A stretch of 64,000 nucleotides of DNA from an uncultured delta proteobacterium (GTDB taxonomy: Bacteria > Desulfobacterota > BSN033 > UBA1163), in NCBI GenBank assembly GCA_963827685.1, contig CAWHBU010000005.1:128001-192000 (forward strand), given 5' to 3'. The notes below the pieces were generated by a model, which saw only the letters and a program-made list of their open reading frames with translations, was not told where the DNA came from and did no database searches. Made by a program: the position numbers and the translations under genes. Below, piece by piece: positions 4,827-63,359 of this stretch (position 1 is the first letter of the stretch; each line of letters opens with the position of its first letter).

Positions 4827-4917
4827 AAAATCCCTCCTTTCTAAAGAATCATGATATGGTTTGATTCAGTTGGATTTGTTGATTCTTCACCTCCCTTCAC
4901 TGTTTTTTTCCCTTTTT

Positions 4918-5466: not shown

Positions 5467-5476
5467 CGGCGAGAAA

Positions 5477-5529
5477 TTAAATATAATTTAACCTAATTAA
5501 CAAATACTTAATACCCAAAAATTTGTCAA
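5477..5529 (-). promoter_or_regulatory. Putative promoter/operator of XRE-cupin gene
   Basis: TTGACA on minus strand at 5529-5524; two TTAA-N7-TTAA boxes (5477-5491, 5497-5511); conserved in copy 2; -10 is weak. Confidence 0.55.
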
Positions 5530-5700
5530 GAAAAAACTTCAAGAGTTTTTCAAACCAACCATTGTTTCGTTCTCGATTCCACCAACTCTCCACTGATGTA
5601 ATTTGTGAGCTTCTCAATACCCATTGCAAACTCCTTTCTCGAATATATGTTTAACCGTCTTACTTCTTTTCATTTAGATGATCCAAGAACCGTAATGATG

Positions 5701-12843: not shown

Positions 12844-13693
12844 AAAGTCCTTGCGGCCTAAAGAGGAGGACTAAGATGACAATGACGAAGCCTACTGCAT
12901 CCTTATAACCGGTTGAGATAAAACCAGCCCCTAAACTTTCGGAGATCCCGAGAATGATGCCACTGAAAAATGCTCCGACAAAGTTGCCCATCCCTCCCAT
13001 GATTACTATGATGAATGCCTTCAAGACAGCCAATTCACCCATAGTCGGATAGACAAGATAAATCGTTCCCAATAGAATGCCGGCCATGCCTGCCACGACT
13101 GAACCGATGGCAAAGGTATAGAGGTAGATGCGGTCAATCCGAATCCCCATCAGGGCAGCTGCATCCTTATTTTCAAAGGTAGCTCGCATTGCTTTCCCGA
13201 GTTTAGTCTTTCTAATAAGGTAGTGAAGAAGGATGATGACGCCGATGGTAAGCAAAAGAGCAAATATTCTGGGTTGGGTGACATAGACGTATCCTAATTT
13301 TAACGAGGCAGGGGGGAAGGGATTAGGTATTTTTTTGGGCACACCGCCCCATATGACTAACGCCGTATTTTTAAGGAAGATAGAAAGACCAATGGTCACG
13401 AGGGCTGTCATGAGAATCGGAGCATTACGTATGGGCTTGATGGTGAGACGCTCGATGATCCCTCCAAAAACCAGAACTCCACCCATCCCCAATAAGATCG
13501 AGAGGAAATAGTTCACTTGAAGAATTGCAACGAGGCTATAAACAAAAAAGGCTCCTAACATGTATAGTTCACCATGGGCAAAATTCACTACATTCATGAG
13601 GCCGAAGATCAGGGTTAGTCCTACCCCCATCAATCCATAGGCCGATCCAATGATCGCGCCATTAAACATGTGGGTGACAAACTGTTCAAACAT
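12833..13693 (-). CDS. livH: LIV-type ABC permease (LivH-like)
   Basis: GLTLIFGLMNVVNFAHGE, RPQGLFG. Confidence 0.92.
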   Translation of the reverse strand: MFEQFVTHMFNGAIIGSAYGLMGVGLTLIFGLMNVVNFAHGELYMLGAFFVYSLVAILQVNYFLSILLGMGGVLVFGGIIERLTIKPIRNAPILMTALVTIGLSIFLKNTALVIWGGVPKKIPNPFPPASLKLGYVYVTQPRIFALLLTIGVIILLHYLIRKTKLGKAMRATFENKDAAALMGIRIDRIYLYTFAIGSVVAGMAGILLGTIYLVYPTMGELAVLKAFIIVIMGGMGNFVGAFFSGIILGISESLGAGFISTGYKDAVGFVIVILVLLFRPQGLFGE

Positions 13694-13707
13694 AAGATCT
13701 CCTACTT

Positions 13708-13740
13708 AAAGAGGCTATGGCAGGGGGCCATAGCCTCTTT
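13708..13740. terminator. Perfect 14-bp stem-loop between SBP and permease (partial terminator or mRNA stabiliser)
   Basis: AAAGAGGCTATGGC-AGGGG-GCCATAGCCTCTTT. Confidence 0.7.
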
Positions 13741-13743
13741 GCT

Positions 13744-14874
13744 CTAATCAGCAGGGACATGTCTCAAGACTTGTACTTTCCCCTCCTTGATCTGAGTAAC
13801 TACAACATAAGCAATTCCGCGGTGCCGCTCATCAAAGCGGAAATTCACGCCATGGAGAGTATCCATCCTAGTCTTTTCAATAGCACTCGTTAGCTTTTCT
13901 GGATCAGTTCCTCCGGCCCGCTTCACCGCATCAGCGATAATAATCACAGCGTCATAGCCAGCGGCTGGATATTTACCTGGGGTTCCAAGCTGTGGATACC
14001 GAGCCATATAGTCTTTTACAAAAGCGACATTTAGAGTGTCCTGAATCCCTGGAGCCCATTCAGCGCCTCCATAGATCCCTTCGCTATCCGCTCCGGCCAG
14101 TTTAATGAAGTGCGACTCCACAATGGCCCCCGTCGCAAGGGTGGGCTTTTTCAGTCCCTGCTCCCTCATCTGTTTAATGAGCAAGGCTCCATCTTGTGCT
14201 TCAGCGACAATGAACATAGCATCAGGCTTGACCCCCTTCACTTTTGTAATGAAAGGTAAGTAATCGGTTTCGCCATGGGAAAATAGATCTTTACTCAGAA
14301 TCTTCACCCCAGACCCTTCAAAAAGGTCGCCAAAGTCTTTAGTGGCATTCCGTCCCCAGTCATCGTTTACTGCAAGGATGCATACAGTTTTCACTTTGTT
14401 TGTATCGACGAAGAATTTCACTGAGGCCTTGGCAAGAGCTCTTTCTCCCGGGGGCATCCGGAAGTAATACTTAATTGGATCTTCTAAAAGCTTAGGAGAG
14501 GTGGAGATGGCATTGACCATGGGAATTCCATATTTCATGGCAACCGGTTTTGCAGCCAAACTCGCTGTGCTGCAAAAAGCACCAATGAAGACAGGAACTT
14601 TATCCTTAGCAATCAGTTTCTCCGCCGCCGCTCTTGTTTCGTTGGGTTTACACATCCCATCCTCAACAACTAATTCAATCTTTCTTCCAAGAATACCGCC
14701 CTTTGCATTGATTTGCTCTACAGCCAGCTTAGCCCCATTAACCGCCGCTTGTCCATCGAGGGCAATAGAACCTGTCAGCGGCTGGATGATCCCTATTCGA
14801 ATTGGCTCCTGGGCAAAACTGGTTTGAATAACGAAAAGAAATGCGATAGATGAAAGAACAATAAGTTTTTTCAT
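13744..14874 (-). CDS. LIV-type ABC substrate-binding protein
   Basis: Signal peptide, IRIG...PLTG, INAKGGILGRKIELVVED. Confidence 0.92.
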   Translation of the reverse strand: MKKLIVLSSIAFLFVIQTSFAQEPIRIGIIQPLTGSIALDGQAAVNGAKLAVEQINAKGGILGRKIELVVEDGMCKPNETRAAAEKLIAKDKVPVFIGAFCSTASLAAKPVAMKYGIPMVNAISTSPKLLEDPIKYYFRMPPGERALAKASVKFFVDTNKVKTVCILAVNDDWGRNATKDFGDLFEGSGVKILSKDLFSHGETDYLPFITKVKGVKPDAMFIVAEAQDGALLIKQMREQGLKKPTLATGAIVESHFIKLAGADSEGIYGGAEWAPGIQDTLNVAFVKDYMARYPQLGTPGKYPAAGYDAVIIIADAVKRAGGTDPEKLTSAIEKTRMDTLHGVNFRFDERHRGIAYVVVTQIKEGKVQVLRHVPAD

Positions 14875-15024
14875 TGGCAGACCCCCTTCCTTTTTAATGG
14901 AATCAATAACATTTAAAGAGATAAATAAAGATTCAGAGTGTGTTTTCCCTCCTCTTCATCTCCGTCTAACCAAAAAGGAGTTGATTGATATCGAACAGGC
15001 TAAACCCTTGCTCACCTCCCTTCC

Positions 15025-15573
15025 TTAAAAAGTGGGTGGACTCACCACCCATATCACGACCGCCCTCTTTTTGCCAGAGTTCGACCAGCTATGAGGCTCT
15101 TGGGATGAAAAATAAAAACTTTCGTTCTTTTTCACTCGATAGGGTTTCCCATTCAAATTGATCTCCAGTTCTCCCTGCAGGACAATCCCAAATTCTTCTC
15201 CGATATGGGAATAAGGCCCTTTTGATCCACCCCTGGGCTCAATCGTGGTATAAAAGGGCTGCATCCGTTTATTCTGGATACTCCGGACAAGCATCTGAAT
15301 CTTTGCATCCCCACGTTTAAAGCGAATGTTTACCCTCTCCCCTTCTTTGCAGACCACATCGTTCTCCTCGGTCTCTGGCTCGAGGAAAAAATCAACCACC
15401 TTCACCTGAAGGGCGGAGGCAATCTTTTTTAGAATCATGATAGAAGGGTTTGCGCGCCCCCGTTCCAGTTGGGAGAGGAAGGCGTCTGTGCAACCAGCCT
15501 TGCTGGCCAGTTGTTTGAGGGTCATTCGGTTTGCCAAGCGGAAGACTTTGAGTTTTTCGGCAATCTCTTTCAT
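15025..15573 (-). CDS. XRE-family HTH + cupin regulator (copy 2, protein identical to copy 1)
   Basis: Same 182-aa translation as 4918-5466. Confidence 0.93.
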   Translation of the reverse strand: MKEIAEKLKVFRLANRMTLKQLASKAGCTDAFLSQLERGRANPSIMILKKIASALQVKVVDFFLEPETEENDVVCKEGERVNIRFKRGDAKIQMLVRSIQNKRMQPFYTTIEPRGGSKGPYSHIGEEFGIVLQGELEINLNGKPYRVKKNESFYFSSQEPHSWSNSGKKRAVVIWVVSPPTF

Positions 15574-15637
15574 CGGAGAGAAGTTAAATATAATTTAACC
15601 TAATTAACAAATACTTAATATCTAAAAATTTGTCAAG
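15025..15637. repeat. ~613-bp direct repeat, copy 2
   Basis: Matches 4918-5530 through the upstream TTGTCAAG. Confidence 0.95.
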
Positions 15638-15669
15638 CAGAAAATTCATCGAAGTTGGATGAAGGAAAT

Positions 15670-16429: not shown

Positions 16430-16519
16430 TCCCCTCCCCCTTGATGGGGGAGGGGGGGGTGGGGGTGAAAAAGAGTTTATCTCCCCCTCCCCTCCATCCC
16501 CTCCCGCCAAGGGAGGGGA
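16430..16519. repeat. Inverted doublet of CCCCTCCCCC..GGGGGAGGG REP-like palindromes
   Basis: CCCCTCCCCCTTGATGGGGGAGGGG-GGGGTGGGGGTG ... CCCCCTCCCCTCCATCCCCTCCCGCCAAGGGAGGGG; related unit at 22968-23170. Confidence 0.8.
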
Positions 16520-16609: not shown

Positions 16610-17272
16610 TCACTCGACCCCTTGACCCCTCGGCCCCTCGAACCCTTTCAACGGACAGATATCACATCTCGGCGTCTTTTTACACACCATTTTTCCCACA
16701 TGAACGATGAGGGCATGATATTCGTTGAACAATTCTTCGTCAAGGGGAAGATGATCCATAAGGAGTTTCTGGATTTCCTCGTAAGAGGCTTCCTCTGAAA
16801 TGACTCCATGTCGAGAAAGGACCCTTTTCGTATAAGCATCGACAACGAAAATAGGTTTCTTCAAGGCATAGAGGAGGATGCTATCCGCTGTTTCGGGTCC
16901 GATTCCCTTGACTCCGAGAAGCTTTTTCCTCAACTCTACCAGCCCCTCTCTCTTCATTCTCTTTAAATCCCCGCCATATTCTTCAAATAAGAAGTCTATA
17001 AACGACTTCAATCGATCGGCTTTGATTCGGTAGTAACCTGACGATTTGATCAGCGAGGCGAGTTGTGAACGTTTAAGGTGATAGATCCCTTCCGGATTTA
17101 ATACCCTTCTCCCTTTTAGCTTCTGAATTGCTTTCTCCACATTTCTCCAGGAGGTATTTTGTGTGAGGATCGCTCCAACCATCACCTCAAAAGAAGTCTC
17201 ACCAGGCCACCAATTTCGGGAACCGTAAGTCCGGTTAAGTTTGCGGTAGATTTTCATTAAAATTTTCTTCAT
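16610..17272 (-). CDS. Endonuclease III-related HhH-GPD DNA glycosylase
   Basis: GAILTQNTSW, HhH GIGPETAD, VVDAY, CKKTPRCDIC. Confidence 0.9.
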   Translation of the reverse strand: MKKILMKIYRKLNRTYGSRNWWPGETSFEVMVGAILTQNTSWRNVEKAIQKLKGRRVLNPEGIYHLKRSQLASLIKSSGYYRIKADRLKSFIDFLFEEYGGDLKRMKREGLVELRKKLLGVKGIGPETADSILLYALKKPIFVVDAYTKRVLSRHGVISEEASYEEIQKLLMDHLPLDEELFNEYHALIVHVGKMVCKKTPRCDICPLKGFEGPRGQGVE

Positions 17273-17308
17273 AATGGTTTCTTGACTTCCAATTAGAATT
17301 ATCCAAAA

Positions 17309-17420
17309 GGGTCCAAGGGGTCAAGGATTCAAGGGGTCAAGCGAAAAATATGAGATGGAAAGAAGCATAATTTTTAAATTATAAACCCTTGAACCCATGA
17401 ACCCTCGAATCCTTGAACCC
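17309..17420. repeat. Inverted pair of degenerate octamer arrays
   Basis: GGGTCCAA GGGGTCAA GGATTCAA GGGGTCAA / CCCTTGAA CCCATGAA CCCTCGAA TCCTTGAA. Confidence 0.85.
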
Positions 17421-17424
17421 TTTT

Positions 17425-20626: not shown

Positions 20627-20715
20627 TGAGTTATGAGTTTAGAGTTTAGAGTTAAGAGTTTAGAGTTATAAATTAATCCATAATCCTCAATTCACAATTC
20701 TCAATTCATAACTCT
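20627..20715. repeat. Inverted pair of degenerate heptamer arrays (6+6 units)
   Basis: (T/A)GAGTT(A/T) x6 followed by (T/C)AA(T/C)(T/C)C(A/T) x6. Confidence 0.85.
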
Positions 20716-21644
20716 TAATTATTTCTCTTCCTTCCTTGGACAATGGAGACGAAGGCGTCCTCAAGTGAGGGTCGGACCACCAGCAGATCAAGAATTTTCA
20801 TTCCTTGTTCTTTTAGAATATCCCGAATCACTTTTTCGCCCTCCTGGGGATCATCCACGAGAATGTGGATCTTATCCCCGGATAAGACCAGGCTTCGAAT
20901 CAACTTGATGTCTTCAAGCAACTTCATCCCTTTCTGGCGGTTCTCCACCCGCAGTTCCAGGATCGTCCCCCCGATTCGGGCCTTCACAGCAGAAGGAGTA
21001 TCAGCAATGAGCAGGTCTCCCTGATAGATCAGACCAACACGGCTGCAGCGCTCGGCTTCATCCAGATAAGAAGTTGAGAAAAGGATGGTCACCCCCTCTT
21101 TCAACAGATCGTAGAGGATGATCCAGAAATCTCTCCGAGAAAGGGGATCAACCCCTGTGGTCGGTTCATCGAGAAAGAGGATTTGAGGCGTATGGATCAA
21201 AGCACAGATTAGACCCAGCTTCTGTTTCATGCCGCCGGAGAGGTCCTGAGCCTTTCTCTTCCCGAAGGGTTCAAGATTGGCAAATCGGAGGAGCCTTTCT
21301 ATCCGTTCCTTTCTCTTCTGCTTCGGAACTTGATAGAGATCTCCGTAGAAATGGATGTTTTCAAGAACGGTAAGATCCCCGTAGAGTCCAAACCGCTGGG
21401 GAAGATAACCGACCTTTTCTCTTAGAGCCTCTGCCTCTCTGAGGATATCATGCCCTGCCACCTTTGCCTCCCCTCCGTCAGGGGGAAGGATCCCGCACAG
21501 CATCCGGATAGTAGTCGTTTTCCCAGACGCATCCGGCCCCACCAGACCAAAGATCTCCCCTGTTTTCACTTCCAGGTTCAGGTCTTTGACAGCAGTCAAT
21601 GATTCAAAGGATTTGGACAGATGGGTGGTTTGAATGGAGAACAT
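20715..21644 (-). CDS. ABC exporter ATP-binding protein (YbhF-like)
   Basis: GPDASGKTT, LSGGMKQKL, LDEPTTGVDP; ATG at 21644. Confidence 0.92.
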   Translation of the reverse strand: MFSIQTTHLSKSFESLTAVKDLNLEVKTGEIFGLVGPDASGKTTTIRMLCGILPPDGGEAKVAGHDILREAEALREKVGYLPQRFGLYGDLTVLENIHFYGDLYQVPKQKRKERIERLLRFANLEPFGKRKAQDLSGGMKQKLGLICALIHTPQILFLDEPTTGVDPLSRRDFWIILYDLLKEGVTILFSTSYLDEAERCSRVGLIYQGDLLIADTPSAVKARIGGTILELRVENRQKGMKLLEDIKLIRSLVLSGDKIHILVDDPQEGEKVIRDILKEQGMKILDLLVVRPSLEDAFVSIVQGRKRNN

Positions 21645-21650
21645 AGGGGT

Positions 21651-21850
21651 AAGCTCCAAGGCTCAAGCACCTGCCTTCGCCGAAGCGCCTGCCCTCCGCA
21701 AGGCTTCTGGAGGCGGGGCTTCGCGCAGGCAGGCCAAATCACAAATAAATTCCAATATCCAAAATTCAAAATTTCAAACAAAATCGTTTTGGTATTTCGA
21801 AATTGTAATTTGGAACTTGTTTGGCATTTGGAATTTGTAATTTGGAATTT
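21651..21850. repeat. Inverted heptamer-like arrays interrupted by a two-layer palindromic mini-element (21670-21733)
   Basis: AAGCTCC AAGGCTC AAGCA[insert]CC AAATCAC...AATATCC AAAATTC / TTTGGAA...TTTGTAA TTTGGAA; insert has CCTGCC...GGCAGG termini. Confidence 0.8.
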
Positions 21851-21889
21851 AAGGATACAAGAACTGATTTCATGCAAGAGTTGGCATTA

Positions 21890-23185: not shown

Positions 23186-24615
23186 TGTAATCCCAAAATG
23201 ATAATGTCCTAATTGACCAATTTAGAAATGTCCTCTTTTCGACATGCTAAGATGCCCTTTTTCAGAGGAGGGCATGATGGCAGGAGAGGACATGATCATG
23301 GTACGTCAGGGAGAGTTAAAGCGGTTACATGTCATCCAGAAGGTCCTGGAGAGGGTCATCAAGCGGGTAGAGGCAGCAGAGATTCTTTCCTTGAGTGGTA
23401 GGCAAATTCGGAGGATCGTGAAGCGGATCAGGAATGAAGGGAACAGGGGAGTCATACACAAATCGAGAGGGAGGCCATCAAACCGGAGGATACCCTATAA
23501 GATTAAGGACAGGGTGATCCGACTTTACCGGGCACAGTACAAGGGTTTTGGGCCGACCCTGGCCTCGGAGAAGCTTCTGGAAAGGGGTAGGATAGAGATC
23601 AGTGATGAGACCTTACGGAGGTGGCTCATCGAGGCGGGGGATTGGAAGAAGAGCCGCAAGAGAGGGAGGCATCGTCAGTGGAGGGAGCGGAAGCATCATT
23701 ACGGCGAGATGGTACAGATGGACGGGTCCCATCACGCTTGGTTTGAGGACAGAGGTGGCCCCTGTGTTCTGATGAGCTATATTGACGATGCTACCGGGGA
23801 AGCCTTTGGGAGGTTCTATGAGTATGAGGGGACGATCCCGGCGATGGATAGCTTCAAGCGTTATATCAAGAAAAACGGTTTACCGATGAAGGTGTATTTG
23901 GATAAGCATTCGACCTATAAGTCGACGGCCAAGCCAACGATCGAGGACGAGTTAAATGACGTGGGGCCGTTAAGTGAGTTTGAGAGGGCCTTAAAAGAGT
24001 TGGGGGTAGAGGTCAGTCATGCCCATTCGCCGCAGGCCAAGGGGCGGATTGAACGACTCTTTCGGACCCTTCAGGACAGGCTGGTCAAGGAGATGCGTTT
24101 AAGAGGGATCAGGACGATTGAGGAAGGCAATCAGTTCTTAGAGGAATATCTTCCTCTCTATAACAAGAGGTTCTCTGTTTGGCCCCAGGAGAAAGACGAT
24201 TTCCACAGGCCCTTACCTAAGGGGGTGGATCTGGATGCGATCTTATGCATTAAGACAGAGCGAGCACTGAGAAATGACTTTACGGTGGCTCATAACAGGA
24301 AGCTCTATCAGGTTGAGGATACGATCAAGGCCTCCAAGGTGATGGTTCAGGATCGAATCGACGGATCAATGGTCATGACCCATAAAGGTCGAGCTTTGAG
24401 ATTTAAAGAGATCACTGAGAGACCACTAAGAGAGAAGAAACAGCCGGCTATTGTGAGAAGGAGGAAGACTTACATTCCTCCGGCTGATCATCCTTGGAGG
24501 AAGTTCAAGATTAGGAAACATCCCTATAACAGAGAAAAACTCTTAGAATCTCAAATCTGAAGAATAGGACATTTCTATTTTGGTAAGAAGAGGACATTTC
24601 TATTTTGGCTTGACA
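23186..24615 (+). mobile_element. IS1202-family (formerly ISNCY) insertion sequence with 17-bp target duplication
   Basis: Ends TGTAATCCCAAAATGATAATGTCC / rc TGTCAAGCCAAAATAGAAATGTCC; internal repeated AATGTCC sites; GGCGTAAGAGAACCCTC at 23169-23185 and 24616-24632. Confidence 0.9.
23277..24560 (+). CDS. DDE transposase (rve/integrase core with N-terminal HTH)
   Basis: QMDGS, IDDAT, YLDKHS, PQAKGRIERLFRTLQDRL. Confidence 0.93.
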   Translation: MAGEDMIMVRQGELKRLHVIQKVLERVIKRVEAAEILSLSGRQIRRIVKRIRNEGNRGVIHKSRGRPSNRRIPYKIKDRVIRLYRAQYKGFGPTLASEKLLERGRIEISDETLRRWLIEAGDWKKSRKRGRHRQWRERKHHYGEMVQMDGSHHAWFEDRGGPCVLMSYIDDATGEAFGRFYEYEGTIPAMDSFKRYIKKNGLPMKVYLDKHSTYKSTAKPTIEDELNDVGPLSEFERALKELGVEVSHAHSPQAKGRIERLFRTLQDRLVKEMRLRGIRTIEEGNQFLEEYLPLYNKRFSVWPQEKDDFHRPLPKGVDLDAILCIKTERALRNDFTVAHNRKLYQVEDTIKASKVMVQDRIDGSMVMTHKGRALRFKEITERPLREKKQPAIVRRRKTYIPPADHPWRKFKIRKHPYNREKLLESQI

Positions 24616-30869: not shown

Positions 30870-31544
30870 TCACTTTTTTAGGTTTTTGAAGGCTTTCTTA
30901 GCGTCGTCCATAAACTGCTTTACGGTCTCGCGGGAATACTTGTGATCAACCCATTTCGTAAGAAATTGGGGGGGAATGGTAATGATATGAGCGCCAGCTA
31001 CAGCTGCATTCTGGATGTCGATCACACTCCGAATACTTCCCACTATAATCTTTGTCTTAAAACCCCAAGATTCGAGCCATTTGACTGACATAGAAATTAA
31101 CTCCCAGGGATCGCCTCCCTCATCTGCAACTCTCCCAGAAAAGATGCTCGAGTAGGTTGCTCCAGATTTGGCTGAGAGTGCCATCTGGCCGAAAGATAGT
31201 GCGGCTGTGGCATTGACCCGAATTCCTTCATCCTCAAGAGTTTTGATTACCTCAAGACATGGTTCCCCGAACTGACTAATTATAGGGATTTTAATCACGA
31301 CGTTTTTAGCCCATGAAGAGAATTCTCGGGCCTGGCTCAACATCTCTTCAGGGTTATCAGTGACAACCTCCACACTTACAGGTTTTCCATCTAAGATAGC
31401 AGCAATATCCTTCGTTCCTTTTTCCATATCACTAACACCATCCTTAAGCATGATAGTTGGATTAGTTGTTACACCGTCGGCGATTCCATACCTAACCCAC
31501 TTCTCGATCTCCCTAATGTTGGCCGAATCAATAAAGATTTGCAT
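30870..31544 (-). CDS. Transaldolase (short TalC/Fsa type)
   Basis: IFIDSA, GVTTNPT, SVEV, VIKIP Schiff-base Lys, FSGR. Confidence 0.9.
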   Translation of the reverse strand: MQIFIDSANIREIEKWVRYGIADGVTTNPTIMLKDGVSDMEKGTKDIAAILDGKPVSVEVVTDNPEEMLSQAREFSSWAKNVVIKIPIISQFGEPCLEVIKTLEDEGIRVNATAALSFGQMALSAKSGATYSSIFSGRVADEGGDPWELISMSVKWLESWGFKTKIIVGSIRSVIDIQNAAVAGAHIITIPPQFLTKWVDHKYSRETVKQFMDDAKKAFKNLKK

Positions 31545-31577
31545 AAGGCCCCCTACTTATAGGTTATAGGTGATTGG

Positions 31578-32135
31578 TTACATGCTAGAGATTTTGATGA
31601 TTTCAACGGCTTCTAAAAGCGAATTTACACGAAAGTCGCATCGGATATCTCGGTTATAAAGGGCATCCAATAAAATAGTTTTACAGCCAGCGGCTTTACC
31701 GGCTTCCATATCTTTCCACGTATCGCCAACAATAAATGACGACGAAAGATCGATTTCCCATCGGGAGGCTGCTTCGAGCAACATCCCGGGTTTGGGTTTT
31801 CGACATGAACATTGATGGATATCATCATGAGGACAGACATAGACATTATCAATAGGGATTTCCCCGCACATTCGTTCCGTCATCAGATCGAGAACGCCTT
31901 GAGTGATTTCACCTCTATCCAAATCGGGCTGGTTGCTTACGACCAAGATCTTATATCCTAATTCCTTCATCTTACAAACAGCTTCTCGAATTCCATCATT
32001 AAGAACAAATTCGTCATATTTCCTCGGTGAATAGGGCTTACCATCACACAGAATCACCTTGTTAATCACTCCATCCCTATCGAGAAAAACAGCTCTTTCC
32101 TTGAATAAGGTCTTGGGTTTTGGGTTACAGGTCAT
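31578..32135 (-). CDS. gmhB: Heptose-bisphosphate phosphatase (GmhB-like HAD)
   Basis: FLDRDGVIN, SNQ, CPH...CSCRKPKPG, VGD. Confidence 0.9.
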   Translation of the reverse strand: MTCNPKPKTLFKERAVFLDRDGVINKVILCDGKPYSPRKYDEFVLNDGIREAVCKMKELGYKILVVSNQPDLDRGEITQGVLDLMTERMCGEIPIDNVYVCPHDDIHQCSCRKPKPGMLLEAASRWEIDLSSSFIVGDTWKDMEAGKAAGCKTILLDALYNRDIRCDFRVNSLLEAVEIIKISSM

Positions 32136-32142
32136 GGGTAAC
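32108..32142. repeat. Heptamer array 3' of four-helix-bundle gene 1
   Basis: AGGTCTT GGGTTTT GGGTTAC AGGTCAT GGGTAAC. Confidence 0.75.
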
Positions 32143-32184
32143 AAAAGCAAGGTAATGATCGGAGATAGGTAAATAAAAAGATTC

Positions 32185-32573
32185 CTATTCCTTTCTGGAG
32201 GATTTCCAGATCTCTAAAGATTTTTCAAGGGCTGTTAACATTCGACCACATTCATCGTACCGATTCATAAGGTCATCAAATTTATCTTTTTCAAAATAAT
32301 TTTTTTAAAAACCATTTTGAGATGATGCTTTGATTCTCTTATTTCAGCATGTGCTCTGTTGATTCCTTCCAAATACATGTTAATATGTCTATTATTCCAG
32401 CCCTCAGCTATGTTAGCAGGAGCAGAATTTGAGGAGCGCCTTAACTGAGAACCAAGTTCAAAGAGTTCGAAACTTGGAAATGTAAAAGTTAGCTCATTTA
32501 CTTCTAAATGAAGTTCACATAACTTCTGATATACCTCCAAATCCTCAAAACTCTTAATCCTCTTTTTTCCCAT
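32185..32573 (-). pseudogene. Four-helix-bundle protein (TIGR02436/23S-IVP-like), frameshifted in an A7 run
   Basis: SFEDLEVYQ, QLRRSSNS.PANIAEG; adding one A at 32300-32306 gives ...KKNYFEKDKFDDLMNRYDECGRMLTALEKSLEIWKSSRKE*. Confidence 0.85.
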
Positions 32574-32653
32574 TTGCTAACATGCTTTTTAAATTATGAA
32601 AGCATTCCTAATACATTACTTAATCCCGCCCATGTTATGTATGAAAGTAATTT

Positions 32654-32688
32654 ACCTAAAACCTCTAACCTAACACCAAAAACCTATC
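32654..32688. repeat. Heptamer array 5' of four-helix-bundle gene 1 (inverted to 32108-32142)
   Basis: ACCTAAA ACCTCTA ACCTAAC ACCAAAA ACCTATC. Confidence 0.75.
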
Positions 32689-33286
32689 TCTTCTGAACAC
32701 TTTCCCACTTCATTTCTGATATCTTGAGGGAAGGATGCGAAACGATAAGGTGTAAAATAATACTTTGAAAAGATTCGGTATGAGGGGTAATTGTCTCCTG
32801 GTTAACTGTTGGCACAATTACACATGCATCAGCAATCTTTGCTGTATACCCCCCATCTCTACCAACAATTCCCAAGACTTTTGCCCCTATTTCCTTTGCA
32901 TAATCCAAGGCGCGGATTAGATTAACACTGATATTCTTTTCCGAGTTCCCTCCTCCCACAGAGAGCACAAACACACTATCACCGGAAGTAAGTTTACTTC
33001 CCTTTAACCAATCAACAAAAACAGATTCCCAGCCACTGTCATTCGTCCGTGCGGTTAATTCAGAGACATTGTCTATTGGCGTATAGGCTTCGATCCCACA
33101 AATCTTTCTGAAGTCATTGACAGCATGAGAGGCGTTTGCAGCCCCCCCACCTACTCCCAGAAAGAAAAGACGACCGCCTCTTCCTCGCAGTTCAATTATT
33201 GATTCCGCTATTCGCTGAATATCGCCCTTGTTGAGTGACTGAATTACCTTTTGTGTCTCACTCAAGTATTGATCTATATAGTGCAT
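32684..33286 (-). CDS. gmhA: Phosphoheptose isomerase-like SIS protein (GmhA-like)
   Basis: G.GGGAANASH, TARTND.GW, GRDGG, HTES.Q. Confidence 0.85.
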   Translation of the reverse strand: MHYIDQYLSETQKVIQSLNKGDIQRIAESIIELRGRGGRLFFLGVGGGAANASHAVNDFRKICGIEAYTPIDNVSELTARTNDSGWESVFVDWLKGSKLTSGDSVFVLSVGGGNSEKNISVNLIRALDYAKEIGAKVLGIVGRDGGYTAKIADACVIVPTVNQETITPHTESFQSIILHLIVSHPSLKISEMKWESVQKR

Positions 33287-33300
33287 AAGGGCCTCGAAAA

Positions 33301-33340
33301 GTTGATAAGTTTATGAGTTAATAGGTTGATGGGTTATAAA
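33301..33340. repeat. Octamer array 3' of four-helix-bundle gene 2
   Basis: GTTGATAA GTTTATGA GTTAATAG GTTGATGG GTTATAAA. Confidence 0.8.
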
Positions 33341-33358
33341 AAATGTAAAAAGCGATAC

Positions 33359-33760
33359 CTATGAATCCTTATTTTTGCAGCGCTGGAGGTAATTGATGTA
33401 GCCGTTGACAAGGCCAACAGCATTGCTAATAAGCGCACGTCCAGTAGAATAATCTTCTTGGGTAATAAATCCGTCATCCAAAGAAGTGAGCAATTGATCA
33501 ATAAGTTCGTGGAGCGAGCCGCGACTTTGTCTGCAAAACTGAATATTCTCTTGAAAGTGAAACCTCCCGAAGCCTTCTGCTATGTTATGAGTGGTTGACC
33601 GAGCAGCACGTATCATGTCGTCAACGAGACGAAACTTTTCTTCTGGTGGATATTTTTTCACAAGTTTTGATGCAAATCTACGAACCTCGGAACATGCTTT
33701 CCAAGAGTCAAGCTCCTCAAAGCTCGTAAACCTTTTTTTCTTAGAACTTTCTTCATCCAC
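33359..33760 (-). CDS. Four-helix-bundle protein (TIGR02436/23S-IVP-like)
   Basis: SFEELDSW, P.EEKF.L, RAARS...NIAEGFGR, SRGSL.E. Confidence 0.92.
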   Translation of the reverse strand: MDEESSKKKRFTSFEELDSWKACSEVRRFASKLVKKYPPEEKFRLVDDMIRAARSTTHNIAEGFGRFHFQENIQFCRQSRGSLHELIDQLLTSLDDGFITQEDYSTGRALISNAVGLVNGYINYLQRCKNKDS

Positions 33761-33763
33761 TGC

Positions 33764-33802
33764 CTTATAATCTATTAACTTATCAACATATCAACATTTA
33801 AC
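33764..33802. repeat. Octamer array 5' of four-helix-bundle gene 2 (inverted to 33301-33340)
   Basis: CTTATAAT CTATTAAC TTATCAAC ATATCAAC ATTTAAC. Confidence 0.8.
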
Positions 33803-33809
33803 TTTTCAG

Positions 33810-34757
33810 TTACGGGATTCTACCAGTTGCCATTTCTTGCCGGATATAATCAATTGAATTCTGTAACCCTACATCAAGCGGTGTCTTCGGTTTCCAGTCG
33901 AGACTTTCTGCCTGAGTAATATCAGCCAGAGTCACTTGAGCTTCCCCAGGAAGATCATCTTTATAAATGGGATCTGGATTAACTCCAAGGATTCTTGAGA
34001 TTTTATCAAGGATCTCGAGAACAGAATAATTTTCTCCTGAACCGATATTAAACGTTTTTCCATTCGTTCGGTCGTCCCGGATACAAATTAGATGGAAATC
34101 ATTCACATCATCTACATAGACAAAGTCGCGTCTTTTTTCACCAGTTCCATAAATGATCGGCTGCTCACCTTTAAGGAGCTTAATCATAAAGGCGCTCATC
34201 ATGGGGGGAATTGTACGTCGATAATCCTGAACTGGGCCATAGACGCAGAAGTATCGTAACGCTGTAAATCTTAGACCATAAAATTCCCCATACGCTTTGG
34301 CAAAATAAAGAGAAGCCAACTTACTTACTGCATAAAAACTTTCTGGTTTTAATTCCCATTCCGGAGTGGGATAAACGGATGATCCCTCATAAAGCGCAGA
34401 ACTCTCAGCATACACAACCTTTCTCACCCCTGCCCTTCTTGAGGCCTCAAAGACATTTACTGTCCCGGAGACATTGACCTCCGCGGTCTCCACAGGGTCA
34501 GCCTGGCAATCCGCAATACAGTTTTTAGCCGCAAGATGAAAAACCGTATCGACCTCCCTAAATAACGGAATTATCTCTTTCTCCCTAATATCCAGGCAGT
34601 AAAAGTCCACTCCATCTGGAACATTTTCCCTCAGGCCGTAGGCCAGATTGTCAATTCCCGAAACTTCATACCCTTCGGCAAGAAGCCTTGCCGCCAAGTT
34701 GGAGCCAATAAATCCAGCAACACCCGTTATTAAGATTTTTCCTTTATCAGACATCAT
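33810..34757 (-). CDS. NAD-dependent nucleotide-sugar epimerase/dehydratase
   Basis: TGVAGFIGS, YAVSK, RYFCVYGP. Confidence 0.92.
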   Translation of the reverse strand: MMSDKGKILITGVAGFIGSNLAARLLAEGYEVSGIDNLAYGLRENVPDGVDFYCLDIREKEIIPLFREVDTVFHLAAKNCIADCQADPVETAEVNVSGTVNVFEASRRAGVRKVVYAESSALYEGSSVYPTPEWELKPESFYAVSKLASLYFAKAYGEFYGLRFTALRYFCVYGPVQDYRRTIPPMMSAFMIKLLKGEQPIIYGTGEKRRDFVYVDDVNDFHLICIRDDRTNGKTFNIGSGENYSVLEILDKISRILGVNPDPIYKDDLPGEAQVTLADITQAESLDWKPKTPLDVGLQNSIDYIRQEMATGRIP

Positions 34758-37650: not shown

Positions 37651-38511
37651 TTAACCCAAATCCTTGATCAGAGGTTTGATCGTAAAGGGATCCAGGCGAC
37701 GAATCGTATACATGGGCGTGGCATTGAGTTCATCTGCCTTTCCTACCCACTCCTGCCATGGATCATGAGGTGCACTAATTAATTTGCCTGTTAAAGTACC
37801 GGATTCATCCGACGCAAGAAATATGGCTAGGGCAACAACCGCTTCCAAAGAATCACCACCACTGTGTTTTTGTCGTTTTGCCTGGGATAAGGCGAATTCA
37901 CCCACTGCATCACCAGCAGCCAGAACTTCATCCAACATTCGTGTATTGATCGCACCGGGAGCAATTGCATTGACCTGGATGTTAAAGGGTTTAACTTCTT
38001 CGGCCACTGTCTCTGTGAACCGCACTAACGCTGCCTTGGAGGCTGCGTAGGCAGAGAAGTTGGGACGGGGTGCTGTAGCACCACCCCCGGACAGGTTGAT
38101 AATCTTTCCTCGCTGTCGCTCGATCATGCCAGGAAGCACAGCCTTGCAACATAGCATCGGCCCCACTAAATTCACCAGGATTGTCTGAATCCAGTCTTGG
38201 GAGTCACATTCGACAATCAGACCAATTGGTGGCTGGCGGCCAGCATTATTGATTAAAATATCAATCTTCCCAAATTTGGCCAAAACCATCTGGATAAGCT
38301 GCTCTACAGAAGCAGGATCTGACACGTCGGTTGGTATTACAACTGCCTTACGCCCCATTTTCTGAATCTCGATAGCGCTCTTTTCAAGCTCCTTTTGTGT
38401 TCTTGCAGTTAAAACAACATTGGCTCCTTCCTGAGCGAAGCCATGTGCCAAAGCCTTTCCAATGCCACGGCCAGCACCAGTAATCAGTACAACCCTATTT
38501 TTGAGTTTCAT
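37651..38511 (-). CDS. SDR-family oxidoreductase
   Basis: TGAGRGIG, NNAG, YAASK. Confidence 0.92.
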   Translation of the reverse strand: MKLKNRVVLITGAGRGIGKALAHGFAQEGANVVLTARTQKELEKSAIEIQKMGRKAVVIPTDVSDPASVEQLIQMVLAKFGKIDILINNAGRQPPIGLIVECDSQDWIQTILVNLVGPMLCCKAVLPGMIERQRGKIINLSGGGATAPRPNFSAYAASKAALVRFTETVAEEVKPFNIQVNAIAPGAINTRMLDEVLAAGDAVGEFALSQAKRQKHSGGDSLEAVVALAIFLASDESGTLTGKLISAPHDPWQEWVGKADELNATPMYTIRRLDPFTIKPLIKDLG

Positions 38512-38570
38512 TAGTCTTTATAGTCCCTCTGGTCTATTTAGTCTATCTGGTTTATTGGATCTATTTAGCC
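38512..38570. repeat. One-sided degenerate 9-mer array
   Basis: TAGTCTTTA TAGTCCCTC TGGTCTATT TAGTCTATC TGGTTTATT GGATCTATT. Confidence 0.7.
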
Positions 38571-38631
38571 TTCCTTGTCCACCTGGTAAATGAAAATTTG
38601 ACTTAAAAATTAAGTCAGAGCGGGAGGGTAA

Positions 38632-40068
38632 TTACTGGCCTGTGCCTTTGAGGACGACCCAGGCCGTTTTGGCTAGGATCTTCATGTCGAGCCATAACGA
38701 CCAATTATCGATATATTCAAGGTCCATCCGCACCCATTCGTTGAAATCATTGATCTTGTTTCTCCCATTAGCTTGCCAGAGGCATGTAATGCCGGGTTTG
38801 ATGCTTAGCTTTCTTCTATGCCAGCTCTCATACCGAACCAATTCATGAGGGCCTGCCGGTCTGGGACCAACTAAGCTTATTTCTCCCCTAAACACACTCC
38901 ATAGTTGAGGTAGTTCATCAAGACTGTATTTTCGCAGAAATTTTCCCACCCTTGTAATCCTTGGATCATTTTTAATCTTAAAGACAGGACCTTTCATCTC
39001 ATTTAATTGGGCCAGCGTTTCTTTAATATCATCAGCATTGGCTAGCATTGTCCGAAACTTCCAACTCCGAAAAGGTTTCTTATTAAAGCCCACAACGTTC
39101 CACTTATAAAAAACTGGACCTCCGGAGGTTGATTTGATTAGTATTCCTATCACCAAGAAAAGCGGAGAGAGAACGATCAGCAAAGTTCCGGATATAAGAA
39201 TATCAATCAACCTTTTCAAATATAGGGCCCACTCATTATGGGGAGTATTTAAATAACTAATGATCGACAATCCATAAACATTATCTACATTAACTTTTTT
39301 GGTCAGCTTCCCCAGAAAGTCAGAATTAATGCGGATTTGAACCCCCTCTCGTTCACAGATTTCAAAAACTTCTTCAAACTCGAGGCGGCCCAATTCATTG
39401 CCTGAGGCACATACGATTACTTCGTCCACAGAATATTGATGAAGGATCTCTGCGATCTCTTTATTGCTCCCGAGGATCCTCTTCCCATAGCGTTCCTTCT
39501 CTTTGAGGGAATCACGATCCACCACGAGCCCAACGATATCCAGTCCCCATCCGAGATTCGCTTCAATGGTTTCAATGAAGGTCTTTGTCCTCGATCCAGC
39601 CCCAACGACAAGGACTTTCTTTCTATTTTTTCCCTTTCCCCGAATCTCTTTTGCAACTTTAAAGAGAATGACTTTTTCTCCGGCAAGGCTGATAAAGTTT
39701 ATAATGAAAAAGATACCAATGTAAGTTCGGGGAAAATATTCAAAACGGAATATGGAGTAAGCAGCAGAAAGGATGAGGGTGCCAATTAAAGAAGCCTTTC
39801 CAACATGTTTCATTTCCCGCTGAAAGGAAGTAAACCTTTGATAGGTGTAGGCCCCCAGCCTCGTGAGAATAATCACCCATACGATGGCAAAAACAATGAT
39901 TTTCCAAAAAAGATCATGGGCGATTTCAATATCTCTTCCAAGGGGGGCCCACGGAAAGGTTAGTCTTGCCCAGTTCCAGACGAAATACGCTGCTAAGAAG
40001 CTGAAGGCAGTAGTTAGAGCATCAGCCAGTTGGGCAATTCTTCTATGATAACTCGGCCGCCAGAGCAT
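38632..40068 (-). CDS. Priming polyprenyl-phosphate hexose-1-P transferase (WcaJ/CpsE-like)
   Basis: KRLID, KFRTM, DPRIT.VG, DELPQ, KPGIT. Confidence 0.93.
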   Translation of the reverse strand: MLWRPSYHRRIAQLADALTTAFSFLAAYFVWNWARLTFPWAPLGRDIEIAHDLFWKIIVFAIVWVIILTRLGAYTYQRFTSFQREMKHVGKASLIGTLILSAAYSIFRFEYFPRTYIGIFFIINFISLAGEKVILFKVAKEIRGKGKNRKKVLVVGAGSRTKTFIETIEANLGWGLDIVGLVVDRDSLKEKERYGKRILGSNKEIAEILHQYSVDEVIVCASGNELGRLEFEEVFEICEREGVQIRINSDFLGKLTKKVNVDNVYGLSIISYLNTPHNEWALYLKRLIDILISGTLLIVLSPLFLVIGILIKSTSGGPVFYKWNVVGFNKKPFRSWKFRTMLANADDIKETLAQLNEMKGPVFKIKNDPRITRVGKFLRKYSLDELPQLWSVFRGEISLVGPRPAGPHELVRYESWHRRKLSIKPGITCLWQANGRNKINDFNEWVRMDLEYIDNWSLWLDMKILAKTAWVVLKGTGQ

Positions 40069-45464: not shown

Positions 45465-45812
45465 ATGAGAAACCAACGGCGCTTTTCTCCAGAACTTAAA
45501 CGTTCTATCGTCGAAGAGCTTTTGAGCCAAACCTCCTCTCCTGCCCAGATCTGTCGACGCCATAATATCTCCTCCGGCCTCCTCTATCATTGGAAAAGAC
45601 AATATGCCCGAGGGAAATTCGGCAATGAACCGACCAAGGAAGCAGCCCTGGCCGATCGCGTCGAACAGCTGGAACGACTGGTCGGCCAGTTGACCCTGGA
45701 AAAAGAGTTCTTAAAAAAAGCCTTGAAACATACCCTCGAAAAAGCCGACAGAAGAGAGAATTCCTTCTCCATCACCTCCATAAAGGAATCCAAGGGGGGT
45801 GTCAGCTCATGA
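45465..45812 (+). CDS. IS3 OrfA (HTH)
   Basis: RRFSPELK, ICRRHNIS..LLYHWK; A7G at 45713-45720 with open -1 frame into OrfB. Confidence 0.9.
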   Translation: MRNQRRFSPELKRSIVEELLSQTSSPAQICRRHNISSGLLYHWKRQYARGKFGNEPTKEAALADRVEQLERLVGQLTLEKEFLKKALKHTLEKADRRENSFSITSIKESKGGVSS

Positions 45813-46633
45813 ATCTTCCGAGGAGTAGCTTCTATTATCCGCCGAGAGAGAAAACGCCCTCTCAACAAGAACAGGAGAAGACTCTCGAGGGACGAATTGA
45901 AGCCCTCTGTTTGGAATTCCCTCGCTATGGCTATCGAAGGGTAACGGCTCAGTTGCATCGTGAAGGTCTTCTCATCAACCACAAGAAAGTCCTTAAGATC
46001 ATGAAAGCCAATGATTTAGTCTGCCGCCCGCACAGGAAATGGGTCAGAACGACCCAGAGCGATCATGGCTACCCCCTCTATCCCAATCTTCTGAAGGATC
46101 GTCCTATTACGGCCATCAATCAGGCTTGGGTTGCCGATATTACCTATATCCGTATTACTTCGTGCTTTGTCTATCTGTCTGTTCTGTTGGATCTCTTCTC
46201 TCGAAAGGCTATCGGCTATGCGGTGTCTCAAAGTCTTCATGCCTCATTGACTCTTCAAGCCTTAGGGATGGCTTTGTCTCAAAGGGACCCTCCCCGAGGC
46301 TGCATCCACCACTCTGACCAAGGGGTTCAGTATGCCTCTTGGGAGTATGTTCAAAGGTTGAAGAATCACCATTTTCAAATCAGCATGGCTCGTAGAGGAA
46401 ACCCCTATGATAATGCCTTTGCTGAGAGCTTTATTAAGACCCTCAAGAGTGAGGAAATCGATCTTTGGGAGTATCGGACTCTTGAGGACGTTCACCAACG
46501 ACTTCCCTTTTTTATTGAAGAAGTGTATAACAAGAAACGATTGCACTCTGCACTGGGATATTTACCCCCAGATGAATTTGAAGCCATGGTCATAAAGACT
46601 AATAACTTTCTACACCCCTGTCTATCACTCTAA
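45809..46633 (+). CDS. IS3 OrfB DDE transposase
   Basis: YGYRR, WVADITY, HHSDQG.QY, DNA.AESF, RLHSALGY. Confidence 0.93.
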   Translation: MNLPRSSFYYPPREKTPSQQEQEKTLEGRIEALCLEFPRYGYRRVTAQLHREGLLINHKKVLKIMKANDLVCRPHRKWVRTTQSDHGYPLYPNLLKDRPITAINQAWVADITYIRITSCFVYLSVLLDLFSRKAIGYAVSQSLHASLTLQALGMALSQRDPPRGCIHHSDQGVQYASWEYVQRLKNHHFQISMARRGNPYDNAFAESFIKTLKSEEIDLWEYRTLEDVHQRLPFFIEEVYNKKRLHSALGYLPPDEFEAMVIKTNNFLHPCLSL

Positions 46634-56314: not shown

Positions 56315-56423
56315 TGGGCTTTTTCTGTTTATCGAGTTTATTGGGCTTCTTGGGTTTAAAGCCTGGTAACTTCCTATTTTTAATCAATTCAACTCAAGAA
56401 ACCCAAGAAACTCAAAAAACTTA
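56315..56423. repeat. Inverted pair of 9-mer arrays
   Basis: CGAGTTTAT TGGGCTTCT TGGGTTTAA / AACTCAAGA AACCCAAGA AACTCAAAA. Confidence 0.8.
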
Positions 56424-62975: not shown

Positions 62976-63043
62976 GATTGAAGAATTTAGGGATTTAGGA
63001 ATTTTGAAATTCGCAATCCCTCAATTCCTGAATTCTTTAATTC
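62976..63043. repeat. Inverted octamer arrays in rpsT leader
   Basis: GATTGAAG AATTTAGG GATTTAGG AATTTTGA / CGCAATCC CTCAATTC CTGAATTC TTTAATTC. Confidence 0.8.
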
Positions 63044-63066
63044 ATTAAGAAAAAGGAGGCGAAATT

Positions 63067-63354: not shown

Positions 63355-63359
63355 CGAAT

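Follow-up and report, generated by a model that had tools for sequence, protein, structure and literature searches.

Why do two small genes sit inside a sugar operon, each of them enclosed by short tandem repeats that mirror one another? The question is raised by a 64-kb stretch of DNA from an uncultured delta proteobacterium (the window, meaning this whole stretch; cassette positions are given in its coordinates), in which nearly all genes lie on the - strand. A RelA/SpoT protein encoded there shares 89% identity with proteins whose names come from Thermodesulfobacteriota or "Deltaproteobacteria bacterium RBG_19FT_COMBO_46_12". Both small genes belong to the four-helix-bundle (4HB) family TIGR02436/PF05635. 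We regard it as secure that they are inserted cassettes, each composed of a 5' periodic array, a TIGR02436 open reading frame (ORF) and a mirror array on its 3' side, and that gene-less and decayed relatives accompany them. A first-pass annotation of the same DNA had proposed this architecture together with three mechanisms: pairing of the arrays into a stem that loops out the gene, periodic binding of the oligomeric protein, and the ends of a mobile cassette. The architecture and the gene-less derivatives stand; the tests that we ran do not settle the choice among the three mechanisms.

The intact gene lies in cassette 2 (33296-33803), which consists of the following features (arrays are listed without strand, and arms are named as seen from the gene):

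33296..33340, no strand: 3' arm of cassette 2, five GTTNNNNN octamers, reading (NNNNNAAC)n on the - strand
33359..33760, - strand: 4HB-2 (protein P0001), an intact 133-aa four-helix-bundle gene with a GTG start (PF05635, TIGR02436)
33763..33803, no strand: 5' arm of cassette 2, four clear NNNNNAAC units and one degenerate unit

P0001 scores 78.0 bits against PF05635 (cutoff 33.8) and 71.7 bits against TIGR02436 (cutoff 24). A profile built from the alignment of 29 P0001 homologues (A2) matches PDB entry 2gsc_A over residues 8-126 with an E value of 1.6e-14, which identifies 4HB-2 as a full-length four-helix-bundle homologue. On the + strand, positions 33301-33335 read GTTGATAA GTTTATGA GTTAATAG GTTGATGG GTT, and this is the single match in the window to the pattern GTT(N5)x5, which did not occur at all in 100 dinucleotide-preserving shuffles of the window. 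At the opposite end, positions 33773-33803 read CTATTAAC TTATCAAC ATATCAAC ATTTAAC, a run of AAC-ending units of which three follow a period of 8 and the last a period of 7, with a degenerate unit ahead of them; Tandem Repeats Finder (TRF) reports a period of 8 and 3.1 copies at 33773-33797. The unit GTTGATAA (33301-33308) is the exact reverse complement of TTATCAAC (33781-33788), and the arms 33297-33327 and 33769-33799, 441 nt apart, are 84% complementary over 31 nt. It had been claimed that this gene lies between five octamers and five reverse-complement units. The first count is correct, and the second is slightly generous because the fifth unit of the right array is degenerate. The 5' array starts 8 nt past the epimerase stop codon, and the ATG of the SIS gene follows 14 nt beyond the 3' array on the - strand.

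Cassette 1 (32105-32688) has the same layout around a damaged gene:

32105..32143, no strand: 3' arm of cassette 1, five GGTNNNN heptamers
32185..32304, - strand: C-terminal helix of 4HB-1 in another frame, a local hidden Markov model match to profile positions 92-126 (E 0.0012)
32265..32573, - strand: 4HB-1 (protein P0002), a 102-aa ORF of the same family (PF05635, TIGR02436) whose frame breaks ahead of the last helix
32650..32688, no strand: 5' arm of cassette 1, five NNNNACC heptamers, starting at the SIS stop codon TAG

P0002 is 25% identical to P0001 and exceeds both curated cutoffs, with 70.9 bits for PF05635 (profile positions 1-86 of 106) and 64.5 bits for TIGR02436. With its last helix in another frame, 4HB-1 is not a full-length four-helix bundle; the sequence suggests a frameshifted remainder, produced either by pseudogenisation or by a sequencing error in an A/T run. 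The pattern GGT(N4)x5 has exactly two matches in the window, 32109-32139 (+) and 32654-32684 (-), and none in the 100 shuffles.

The operon that holds both cassettes runs, on the - strand, through genes for a short-chain dehydrogenase/reductase (SDR), a GFO/IDH/MocA oxidoreductase, an NTP-transferase, a GHMP kinase, an epimerase, 4HB-2, a SIS isomerase, 4HB-1, a HAD phosphatase and a transaldolase-like protein (TAL). No part for a four-helix bundle is evident in this heptose-type sugar-nucleotide pathway, and both family genes do interrupt it, as had been claimed, among the HAD, SIS, epimerase, GHMP kinase and NTP-transferase genes. Each cassette exactly fills a stop/start junction of the host operon and is co-directional with it. 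A homologous operon is present in L013, a deltaproteobacterial metagenome-assembled genome (MAG), with enzyme identities to the window of 76% (SDR), 61% (GHMP), 82% (epimerase), 81% (SIS), 73% (HAD), 82% (TAL), 43% (GFO) and 45% (NTP-transferase). There the SIS|HAD junction is a bare ATGA stop/start overlap, at the point where the window has the entire 4HB-1 cassette. The arrays are the outermost inserted bases, the 5' array beginning at the SIS stop codon. L013 in turn carries family genes at SDR|GHMP, within GTTAT/ATAAC heptamers, and at NTP|epimerase, within GAAGATNN/NNATCTTC octamers, and the window junctions SDR|GFO and NTP|GHMP are empty. The filled/empty difference at orthologous junctions that the first-pass annotation had called for was therefore found, in a comparison that rests on this one operon pair, and by sequence comparison related operons carry cassettes at different junctions. 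No target-site duplication is visible at SIS|HAD against the empty L013 site, the one comparable junction. The window HAD gene is without the start codon seen in L013, and an in-frame ATG is available inside the 3' array of cassette 1 (32100-32140, -). A HAD start in that array would add about nine array-encoded residues.

One further junction of this operon carries repeats:

31557..31580, no strand: short one-sided heptamer array at the HAD|TAL junction

CTATAAC heptamers occur at HAD|TAL both here and in L013 (~16930-16960), just before the TAL start and with no family gene, and may represent a conserved solo array.

To what extent is this arrangement general? A homologue search with P0001 (133 aa; threshold E ≤ 1e-5) returned 2584 proteins, the best 120 of which are 69-99% identical and carry names from several phyla. 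Eighty related loci (L001-L080) were drawn with the A2 profile from one-genome-per-species contigs, the window's own genome not being among them. They were selected through two peptide patterns of one subfamily, their best matches are 73-79% identical, and many are MAG contigs, part of them with evident frameshifts. We computed an inverted-repeat (IR) score as the best ungapped pairing (+1/-2) between the 150 nt upstream and the 150 nt downstream of a gene, for 69 testable family genes (these loci and the window) and 832 mechanically called control ORFs. Scores of at least 12 were reached by 38 of the 69 family genes and scores of at least 16 by 16 of them, 4HB-2 scoring 16; the controls averaged 7.9, with 10 as the 95th and 15 as the 99th percentile. 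Five of the 11 top-scoring "controls" proved to be family paralogues, and others among them were small genes of further selfish-looking families. The arms in the related loci are periodic as well.

Arrays occur at 6.21 per kb (138 in 22.2 kb) within 120 nt of family genes, against 0.91 per kb (136 in 148.9 kb) in other intergenic DNA and 0.16 per kb (147 in 893.7 kb) in coding DNA. The first-pass annotation had set in advance that arrays no more frequent here than around other genes would count against enclosure; next to family genes their density exceeds that of other intergenic DNA about 7-fold. Both flanks carry arrays in 47 of 89 family gene segments, one flank in 31 and neither flank in 11, the corresponding figures for 727 controls being 18, 122 and 587. 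Family genes were co-directional with both neighbours in 71 of 82 cases (87%), compared with 475 of 771 control triples. One could suppose that the association is incidental, the arrays being products of slippage in AT-rich intergenic DNA with small genes nearby by chance, and arrays do occur at junctions without family genes (the 136 in 148.9 kb) and around unrelated genes. We consider this explanation very improbable in view of the roughly 7-fold density, the absence of the patterns from 100 shuffles, and two properties described below, namely a one-way orientation (30 cassettes against 0) and a motif that tracks the protein subfamily.

Most plasmid loci show the same arrangement. A tblastn search of complete plasmids with P0001 gave 20 records at E ≤ 0.01, of which 14, cyanobacterial and Bacteroidota, were analysed; the other six came from organisms or strains already represented. 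The IR score was at least 12 in 10 of the 14 loci and at least 16 in 7, and arrays were found on both sides in 7, on one side in 6 and on neither side in 1. The period was 7 nt in all loci with arrays except one (L091, period 8), with the cores GGGAACA, GGGAAAA, GGGTGTA, GGCAGAA and AAGGTTYA. Two of these loci, L093 and L094, place such genes in Nostoc sp. PCC 7120.

The closest known system is the intervening sequence (IVS) of 23S rRNA. The available sections of PMC4990558 describe a 428-nt IVS in 23S rRNA helix 45 whose 28-bp terminal stem has an S23p ORF in its loop; two or three GACAGAT heptamers in tandem stand just ahead of the ORF start codon. The IVS is cut by RNase III in vitro, and ends mapped by rapid amplification of cDNA ends fall inside the stem; IVSs are described there for Leptospira, Coxiella, Xanthomonas and Brucella. 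The solved member of the family is a homopentameric toroid, and Avd is an essential cofactor of diversity-generating retroelements (DGRs) (PMC4990558 and PMC10053308, in the portions available); PMC10053308 equates PF05635 with Avd and gives a fold likeness of 2GSC to 4DWL. What had been offered as known about the family, its origin in rRNA IVSs, its pentameric four-helix bundle and its likeness to Avd, agrees with these portions of the two papers. Like the window cassettes, the rRNA IVS as described in those portions has an ORF of the same family in the loop of a terminal-inverted-repeat stem; its ORF is often decaying, and the element is regarded as selfish. The Coxiella IVS also shares the tandem heptamers directly upstream of the ORF that form part of the stem. 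The window cassettes differ in lying in an mRNA operon, not in 23S rRNA helix 25 or 45, and in arms that are wholly periodic, built from a degenerate unit and 71-84% complementary, as against 28 bp with one mismatch and one bulge. In two related loci, L026 (3520-3620) and L014 (~6030-6070), TCTGTCA-type heptamer arrays contain ATCTGTC, the reverse complement of the IVS heptamer GACAGAT reported in the available text of PMC4990558.

Avd resembles the 4HB proteins in its homologous four-helix-bundle fold and in acting on nucleic acid with another enzyme (PMC10053308, as far as the available text goes). Avd systems differ from the window in that no reverse-transcriptase domain occurs among its 62 ORFs and it contains no template/variable repeat pair; nor are Avd genes described as flanked by periodic arrays.

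By analogy with rRNA, our best reading, on which our confidence is evenly divided, is that these are IVS-type mobile cassettes in mRNA operons, whose arrays pair as a stem and are processed as rRNA elements are. They would be no different in kind from the 23S rRNA intervening sequences, only housed elsewhere. In the polycistronic transcript the two arrays would pair into a long imperfect stem with the ORF looped out, and this stem may serve as an RNase III substrate, as it does in the rRNA elements, so that the cassette would be cut from the host RNA, or silenced. Periodicity would make the pairing independent of register and therefore tolerant of repeat slippage. In predicted folds of the sense RNA, the two arrays do form a closing stem in both the minimum-free-energy and the centroid structure of both cassettes, and the fold of cassette 1 has a z-score of -3.05.

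A number of observations weigh against this reading. Complementarity between the cassette 1 arms is 71% over 24 nt, with an IR score below 12, and the fold of cassette 2 is unexceptional (z -1.02; 17 of 100 shuffles fold as well), its antisense duplex (-31.2 kcal/mol) being more stable than the sense duplex (-20.1). The window cassettes lie between protein-coding genes, outside any 23S rRNA helix, and a search of the whole window brought no Rfam family, those of rRNA included, up to its gathering score. Elsewhere, arrays are absent from the 11 family gene segments counted above, and in a Pseudanabaena galeata plasmid (L081, 1270-1970), where a four-helix-bundle gene sits between cas6 and cas4, the flanking arrays are direct, not inverted (~14 CTAAAAG and ~10 CCAAAAG), with a mirror array further upstream. 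Three tests for selection on an RNA stem were negative or weak. First, in 65 stems with 1551 Watson-Crick pairs there was no excess of G·U on the sense strand (56 G·U against 59 A·C), the commonest mismatch being A·A (77). Second, arms pair modestly better within their own cassette than across cassettes that share a class (18.7 against 16.3, and 20.3 against 16.1; percentiles 0.66 and 0.75), an advantage that we distrust because array lengths correlate within a cassette. Third, shuffling spacers among the units of the 3' array, a permutation that removes this confound, left complementarity where it was (18.9 observed, 19.2 permuted; mean percentile 0.46, p 0.43, 16 cassettes). When orthologous Ignavibacteriaceae cassettes (L058, L060, L074) were compared by eye, the one arm difference that could be traced breaks a pair without compensation, in too few sequences to conclude. 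Finally, a stem alone does not explain a core held across phyla at a strict period.

This core varies with the protein. Among genes at least 52% identical to P0001 (n=44), 40 have GTTAW/WTAAC heptamers on one side or both, 30 of them on both, and none has AGGCK/MGCCT hexamers; below 46% identity (n=37), GTTAW/WTAAC is found on at least one side in 3 and on both in 0, and AGGCK/MGCCT on at least one side in 19 and on both in 11. A Flavobacteriales group at 47-50% identity has GTTGA-type cores. The spacing is 7 nt in 183 of 192 GTTAW steps and 6 nt in 48 of 48 AGGCK steps, and the orientation 5'-GTTAW...WTAAC-3' is seen in 30 of 87 cassettes, the reverse in 0 of 87. GTTAW loci extend over about eight phylum-level groups (Desulfobacterales and other Thermodesulfobacteriota, Nitrospirota, Scalindua, Bacteroidota, Ignavibacteria, Chlorobiota, Edwardsbacteria and Pseudomonadota), and their 5' array ends at the start codon or a few nt from it. 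Cassette 2 is an outlier of its motif class, having a GTT core at period 8. These sequence comparisons show array and gene travelling together, with core and period following the protein subfamily across phyla. Arrays typically hold 3-5 units, with an upstream mode of 4 (13 of 30); the idea that five units per array answer to a pentamer is neither supported nor contradicted by this.

The conserved core and fixed spacing appear to be at least as strong a pointer to sequence-specific recognition, for which the encoded oligomer is a possible candidate. The arrays may be periodic binding sites read by a factor specific for their sequence, the simplest choice being the oligomeric four-helix-bundle protein, a minority possibility to which we give tentative weight. 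Binding would regulate expression of the cassette, protect its RNA or mark its ends; arm complementarity would then be a by-product of sites that recur in mirror orientation, and the proposal is compatible with a stem. It would account for a core kept across phyla at a strict period, for variable positions that drift uncompensated with no sense-strand G·U bias, for arms of one class that are nearly interchangeable and for a motif class that follows the protein subfamily. Arrays of 3-5 units, the homopentameric toroid of the solved member and the cofactor role of Avd taken from the papers above also speak for it, and a factor bound at a GTTAW 5' array, at or near the start codon, would be placed to control initiation. 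However, the link between motif and subfamily is equally expected from simple co-inheritance; the loci compared are relatives, so that this link shows co-inheritance and not by itself co-evolution. Moreover, the two arrays read GUUAU and AUAAC on one RNA strand, so that a factor binding single-stranded RNA would recognise just one of the two, the mode of the unit count is 4 and not 5, and the 64 kb hold at least five hairpin motifs but two family genes.

Those hairpins came from a scan of the window for four units with at least four invariant columns at periods 6-10, which returned 16 arrays, 11 of them almost wholly inside the 10% of the sequence that is non-coding. The gene-less inverted forms are:

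16446..16505, no strand: G-run/C-run palindrome between two genes, GGGAGGGGGGGGTGGGG / CCCCTCCATCCCCTCCC, 17 nt, 82%
17305..17424, no strand: gene-less octamer hairpin, GGGTCAAG / CTTGAACC, 37-nt arms, 81% complementary
20628..20720, no strand: gene-less heptamer hairpin, GAGTTTA / TCAATTC, period 7
21734..21851, no strand: gene-less heptamer hairpin, AAATTCA / TTTGGAA, period 7, A/C-rich arm first
56327..56421, no strand: gene-less 9-mer hairpin, 33-nt arms, 82% complementary
62977..63048, no strand: gene-less octamer hairpin upstream of rpsT, GAATTTAG / CAATTCCT, period 8

The first-pass annotation had counted at least six gene-less inverted arrays with periods 7, 8 and 9. Five are confirmed, with 70-82% complementarity and several alternative registers that pair nearly equally well, and the G/C-rich palindrome comes in addition. 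Gene-less derivatives are also seen elsewhere, as pairs of GTTAW and WTAAC arrays less than 200 nt apart in 5 related loci, each beside a filled cassette with the same motif. The one-sided arrays that it mentioned are present and number four, namely the HAD|TAL array (31557-31580) and the following:

1673-1724, no strand: one-sided array (window scan/TRF)
38504..38568, no strand: one-sided 9-mer array with no inverted partner within 38480-38640
63326-63359, no strand: one-sided array (window scan/TRF)

Such empty forms bring in a DNA-level explanation, in which the arrays are the terminal inverted repeats or hairpin ends of a non-autonomous mobile cassette. An enzyme encoded elsewhere would move it in trans, or else recombination between arrays would, and the gene-less hairpins would be empties resembling MITEs (miniature inverted-repeat transposable elements). 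We judge this rather unlikely, although several findings are in its favour: the arrays are the outermost inserted bases between filled and empty junctions, homologous operons have their cassettes at different junctions, distant phyla share proteins that are 60-75% identical, and gene-less array pairs lie beside filled cassettes in 5 loci. Tandem partial duplications at cassette ends point to recombination at the arrays, mismatches without strand bias fit DNA better than RNA, and small genes of the GxxExxY/PDDEXK_3, DUF559 and GIY-YIG types sit in similar inverted-repeat frames. On the other side, the one comparable junction shows no target-site duplication, domain annotation finds no transposase or integrase in or beside the window cassettes, and cores and periods differ among the cassettes of one genome, unlike a MITE family. 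The 87% co-orientation, too, shows expression to be of importance, something that a pure DNA parasite could do without.

MITEs, repetitive extragenic palindromes (REP) and the bacterial interspersed mosaic elements (BIME) that contain them, and integron cassettes are likewise short inverted-repeat elements of intergenic DNA; some contain passenger ORFs, and all lack a promoter and rely on the host for transcription. The cassettes differ from all of these in having no transposase-matched family of terminal inverted repeats, no visible target-site duplication, no attC-like single site and no integrase, and in arms that are internally periodic and differ between cassettes. Differing cores are likewise found among the gene-less hairpins of the window. 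No tyrosine-recombinase domain is present in the window ORFs, and the arrays flank the gene on both sides, which is not the layout of an integron cassette.

The duplications at cassette ends were seen in six loci: L004 (9780-10000), L008 (2480-2650 and 3060-3130), L016 (3730-3870), L001 (580-700), L005 (880-1100) and L026 (3380-3480). They comprise two or three copies of a 5' array, start codon and first ~20 codons ahead of the full gene, and extra copies of the last ~15 codons (NGYINYL...) and 3' array behind it; the junction sequences of L004 and L008 are similar. In L050 (7545-7799) and L052 (10218-10472), an 84-aa GIY-YIG nuclease ORF is located inside the four-helix-bundle ORF, directly after the conserved HNLAEGFGRFH motif and framed by the short inverted repeat CCCTGT...ACAGGG; this looks like a homing-endonuclease-type invasion of the cassette gene. 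In L055 (~12800-14650), one and the same hairpin of TATGTGCC-type octamer arrays recurs at three consecutive junctions, where it stands on either side of a GxxExxY/PDDEXK_3 gene (TIGR04256, 129.6 bits) and of the gene that follows. Small DUF559 endonuclease-like genes lie in G/C-rich inverted repeats (cccctc...gagggg) in L027 (8907-9287) and L017 (12988-13362).

The exact fit of the cassettes to stop/start junctions suggests yet another role for the arrays, as modules of translational coupling and insulation. Ribosomes would stop at the 5' array, restart on the ORF, stop in the 3' array and restart downstream, so that the insertion would be non-polar and would need neither a promoter nor a Shine-Dalgarno sequence of its own. 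In many loci the stop codon of the family gene is in or at the 3' array, the arm starting anywhere between 14 nt ahead of this codon and a few nt past it, and the next ATG follows 1-20 nt on; (NNATAAC)n contains TAA in each of the three frames within three units. In 31400-34000 there are 4 promoter-like sites, where chance predicts 6.7; one of them is in the 5' array of cassette 2, and neither cassette contains a - strand terminator. A translational role has been proposed for TAACTGA repeats that end 1 nt before start codons (PMC4679880, in its available text). Yet hexamer classes give stops in one frame only, none of this applies to the G-rich cores of cyanobacteria (GGGTGTA, GGGAAAA), and neither the mirror-image arrangement nor the gene-less hairpins are explained. 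We consider coupling unlikely.

Heptamer repeats described without a family gene are a further point of comparison. The short tandemly repeated repetitive (STRR) heptamers of cyanobacteria are intergenic heptamer arrays with a conserved G-rich core. MacGregor (2015; PMC4679880) described TAACTGA heptamer direct repeats in Beggiatoaceae, Cyanobacteria and Bacteroidetes, and the available part of that paper proposes S1, Csp and CsrA as binders. These repeats resemble the arrays studied here in being tandem heptamers, mostly intergenic, near start codons and patchy across phyla, and (TAACTGA)n is one instance of the NNATAAC unit of 3' arrays in the P0001 subfamily. In the related loci such NNATAAC arrays end 1-20 nt before the next ATG; the window arrays differ, with GTTNNNNN at period 8 and GGTNNNN at period 7. 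Unlike the cassettes, the TAACTGA repeats are one-sided direct repeats with a single inverted case, and the protein family goes without mention in the available part of PMC4679880. Rehm et al. (2015; PMC4692102) read the heptamers GGGAATC (Xanthomonas) and GGGGA(C/T)T (Nostoc) as G-quadruplex elements, and the sections available report 70-75 convergent GGGAATC pairs in Xanthomonas that are able to form stem-loops. They share with the cyanobacterial plasmid cassettes an intergenic position and a G-rich core (GGGTGTA, GGGAAAA, GGGAACA), and the same sections make no link to four-helix-bundle genes. Our literature search, with subscription journals and supplements outside it, found, apart from the one rRNA IVS case, no paper that joins TIGR02436/PF05635 to periodic arrays at its flanks.

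Other repeats of the window stand apart from the two cassettes. One array is paired across a gene that is not of this family:

16610..16648, no strand: octamer array inverted relative to 17306-17344, CTCGACCC, 39 nt, 79%

The gene enclosed by these two arrays (16610-16648 and 17306-17344) encodes an HhH-GPD DNA glycosylase (16610-17272), and its last codons run into the array. A duplication of 633 bp with 98.3% identity (4909-5541 and 15017-15648) carries a helix-turn-helix (HTH)-cupin regulator gene, and each copy adjoins one of two paralogous branched-chain amino-acid ABC transporter operons. An IS3-type ORF pair (HTH_Tnp_1 and rve) lies at 45465-46633 within a polysaccharide cluster, and a 438-aa HTH_32 ORF at 23244-24560 with flanking inverted repeats (score 15) is probably an insertion sequence.

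What, then, would these cassettes mean for the family? TIGR02436/PF05635 is among the most abundant bacterial protein families without a function, and the fixed order of array, gene and mirror array supplies it with a cis-acting partner. The concept of the rRNA intervening sequence is extended to ordinary operons. For annotation, the architecture accounts for small genes that interrupt unrelated operons and for neighbours that gain array-encoded starts or ends. Short periodic intergenic repeats have so far been isolated curiosities, for which it offers a candidate origin. It is possible, though we put this forward as a doubtful and far-reaching suggestion, that the family and its cognate arrays are one widespread, horizontally moving system, in which the oligomer reads its own cores and so controls processing, expression or movement. 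The STRR heptamers of Nostocales, the TAACTGA repeats of Beggiatoaceae, Cyanobacteria and Bacteroidetes, the GGGAATC repeats of Xanthomonas and the rRNA-IVS heptamers would then be its arms or relics.

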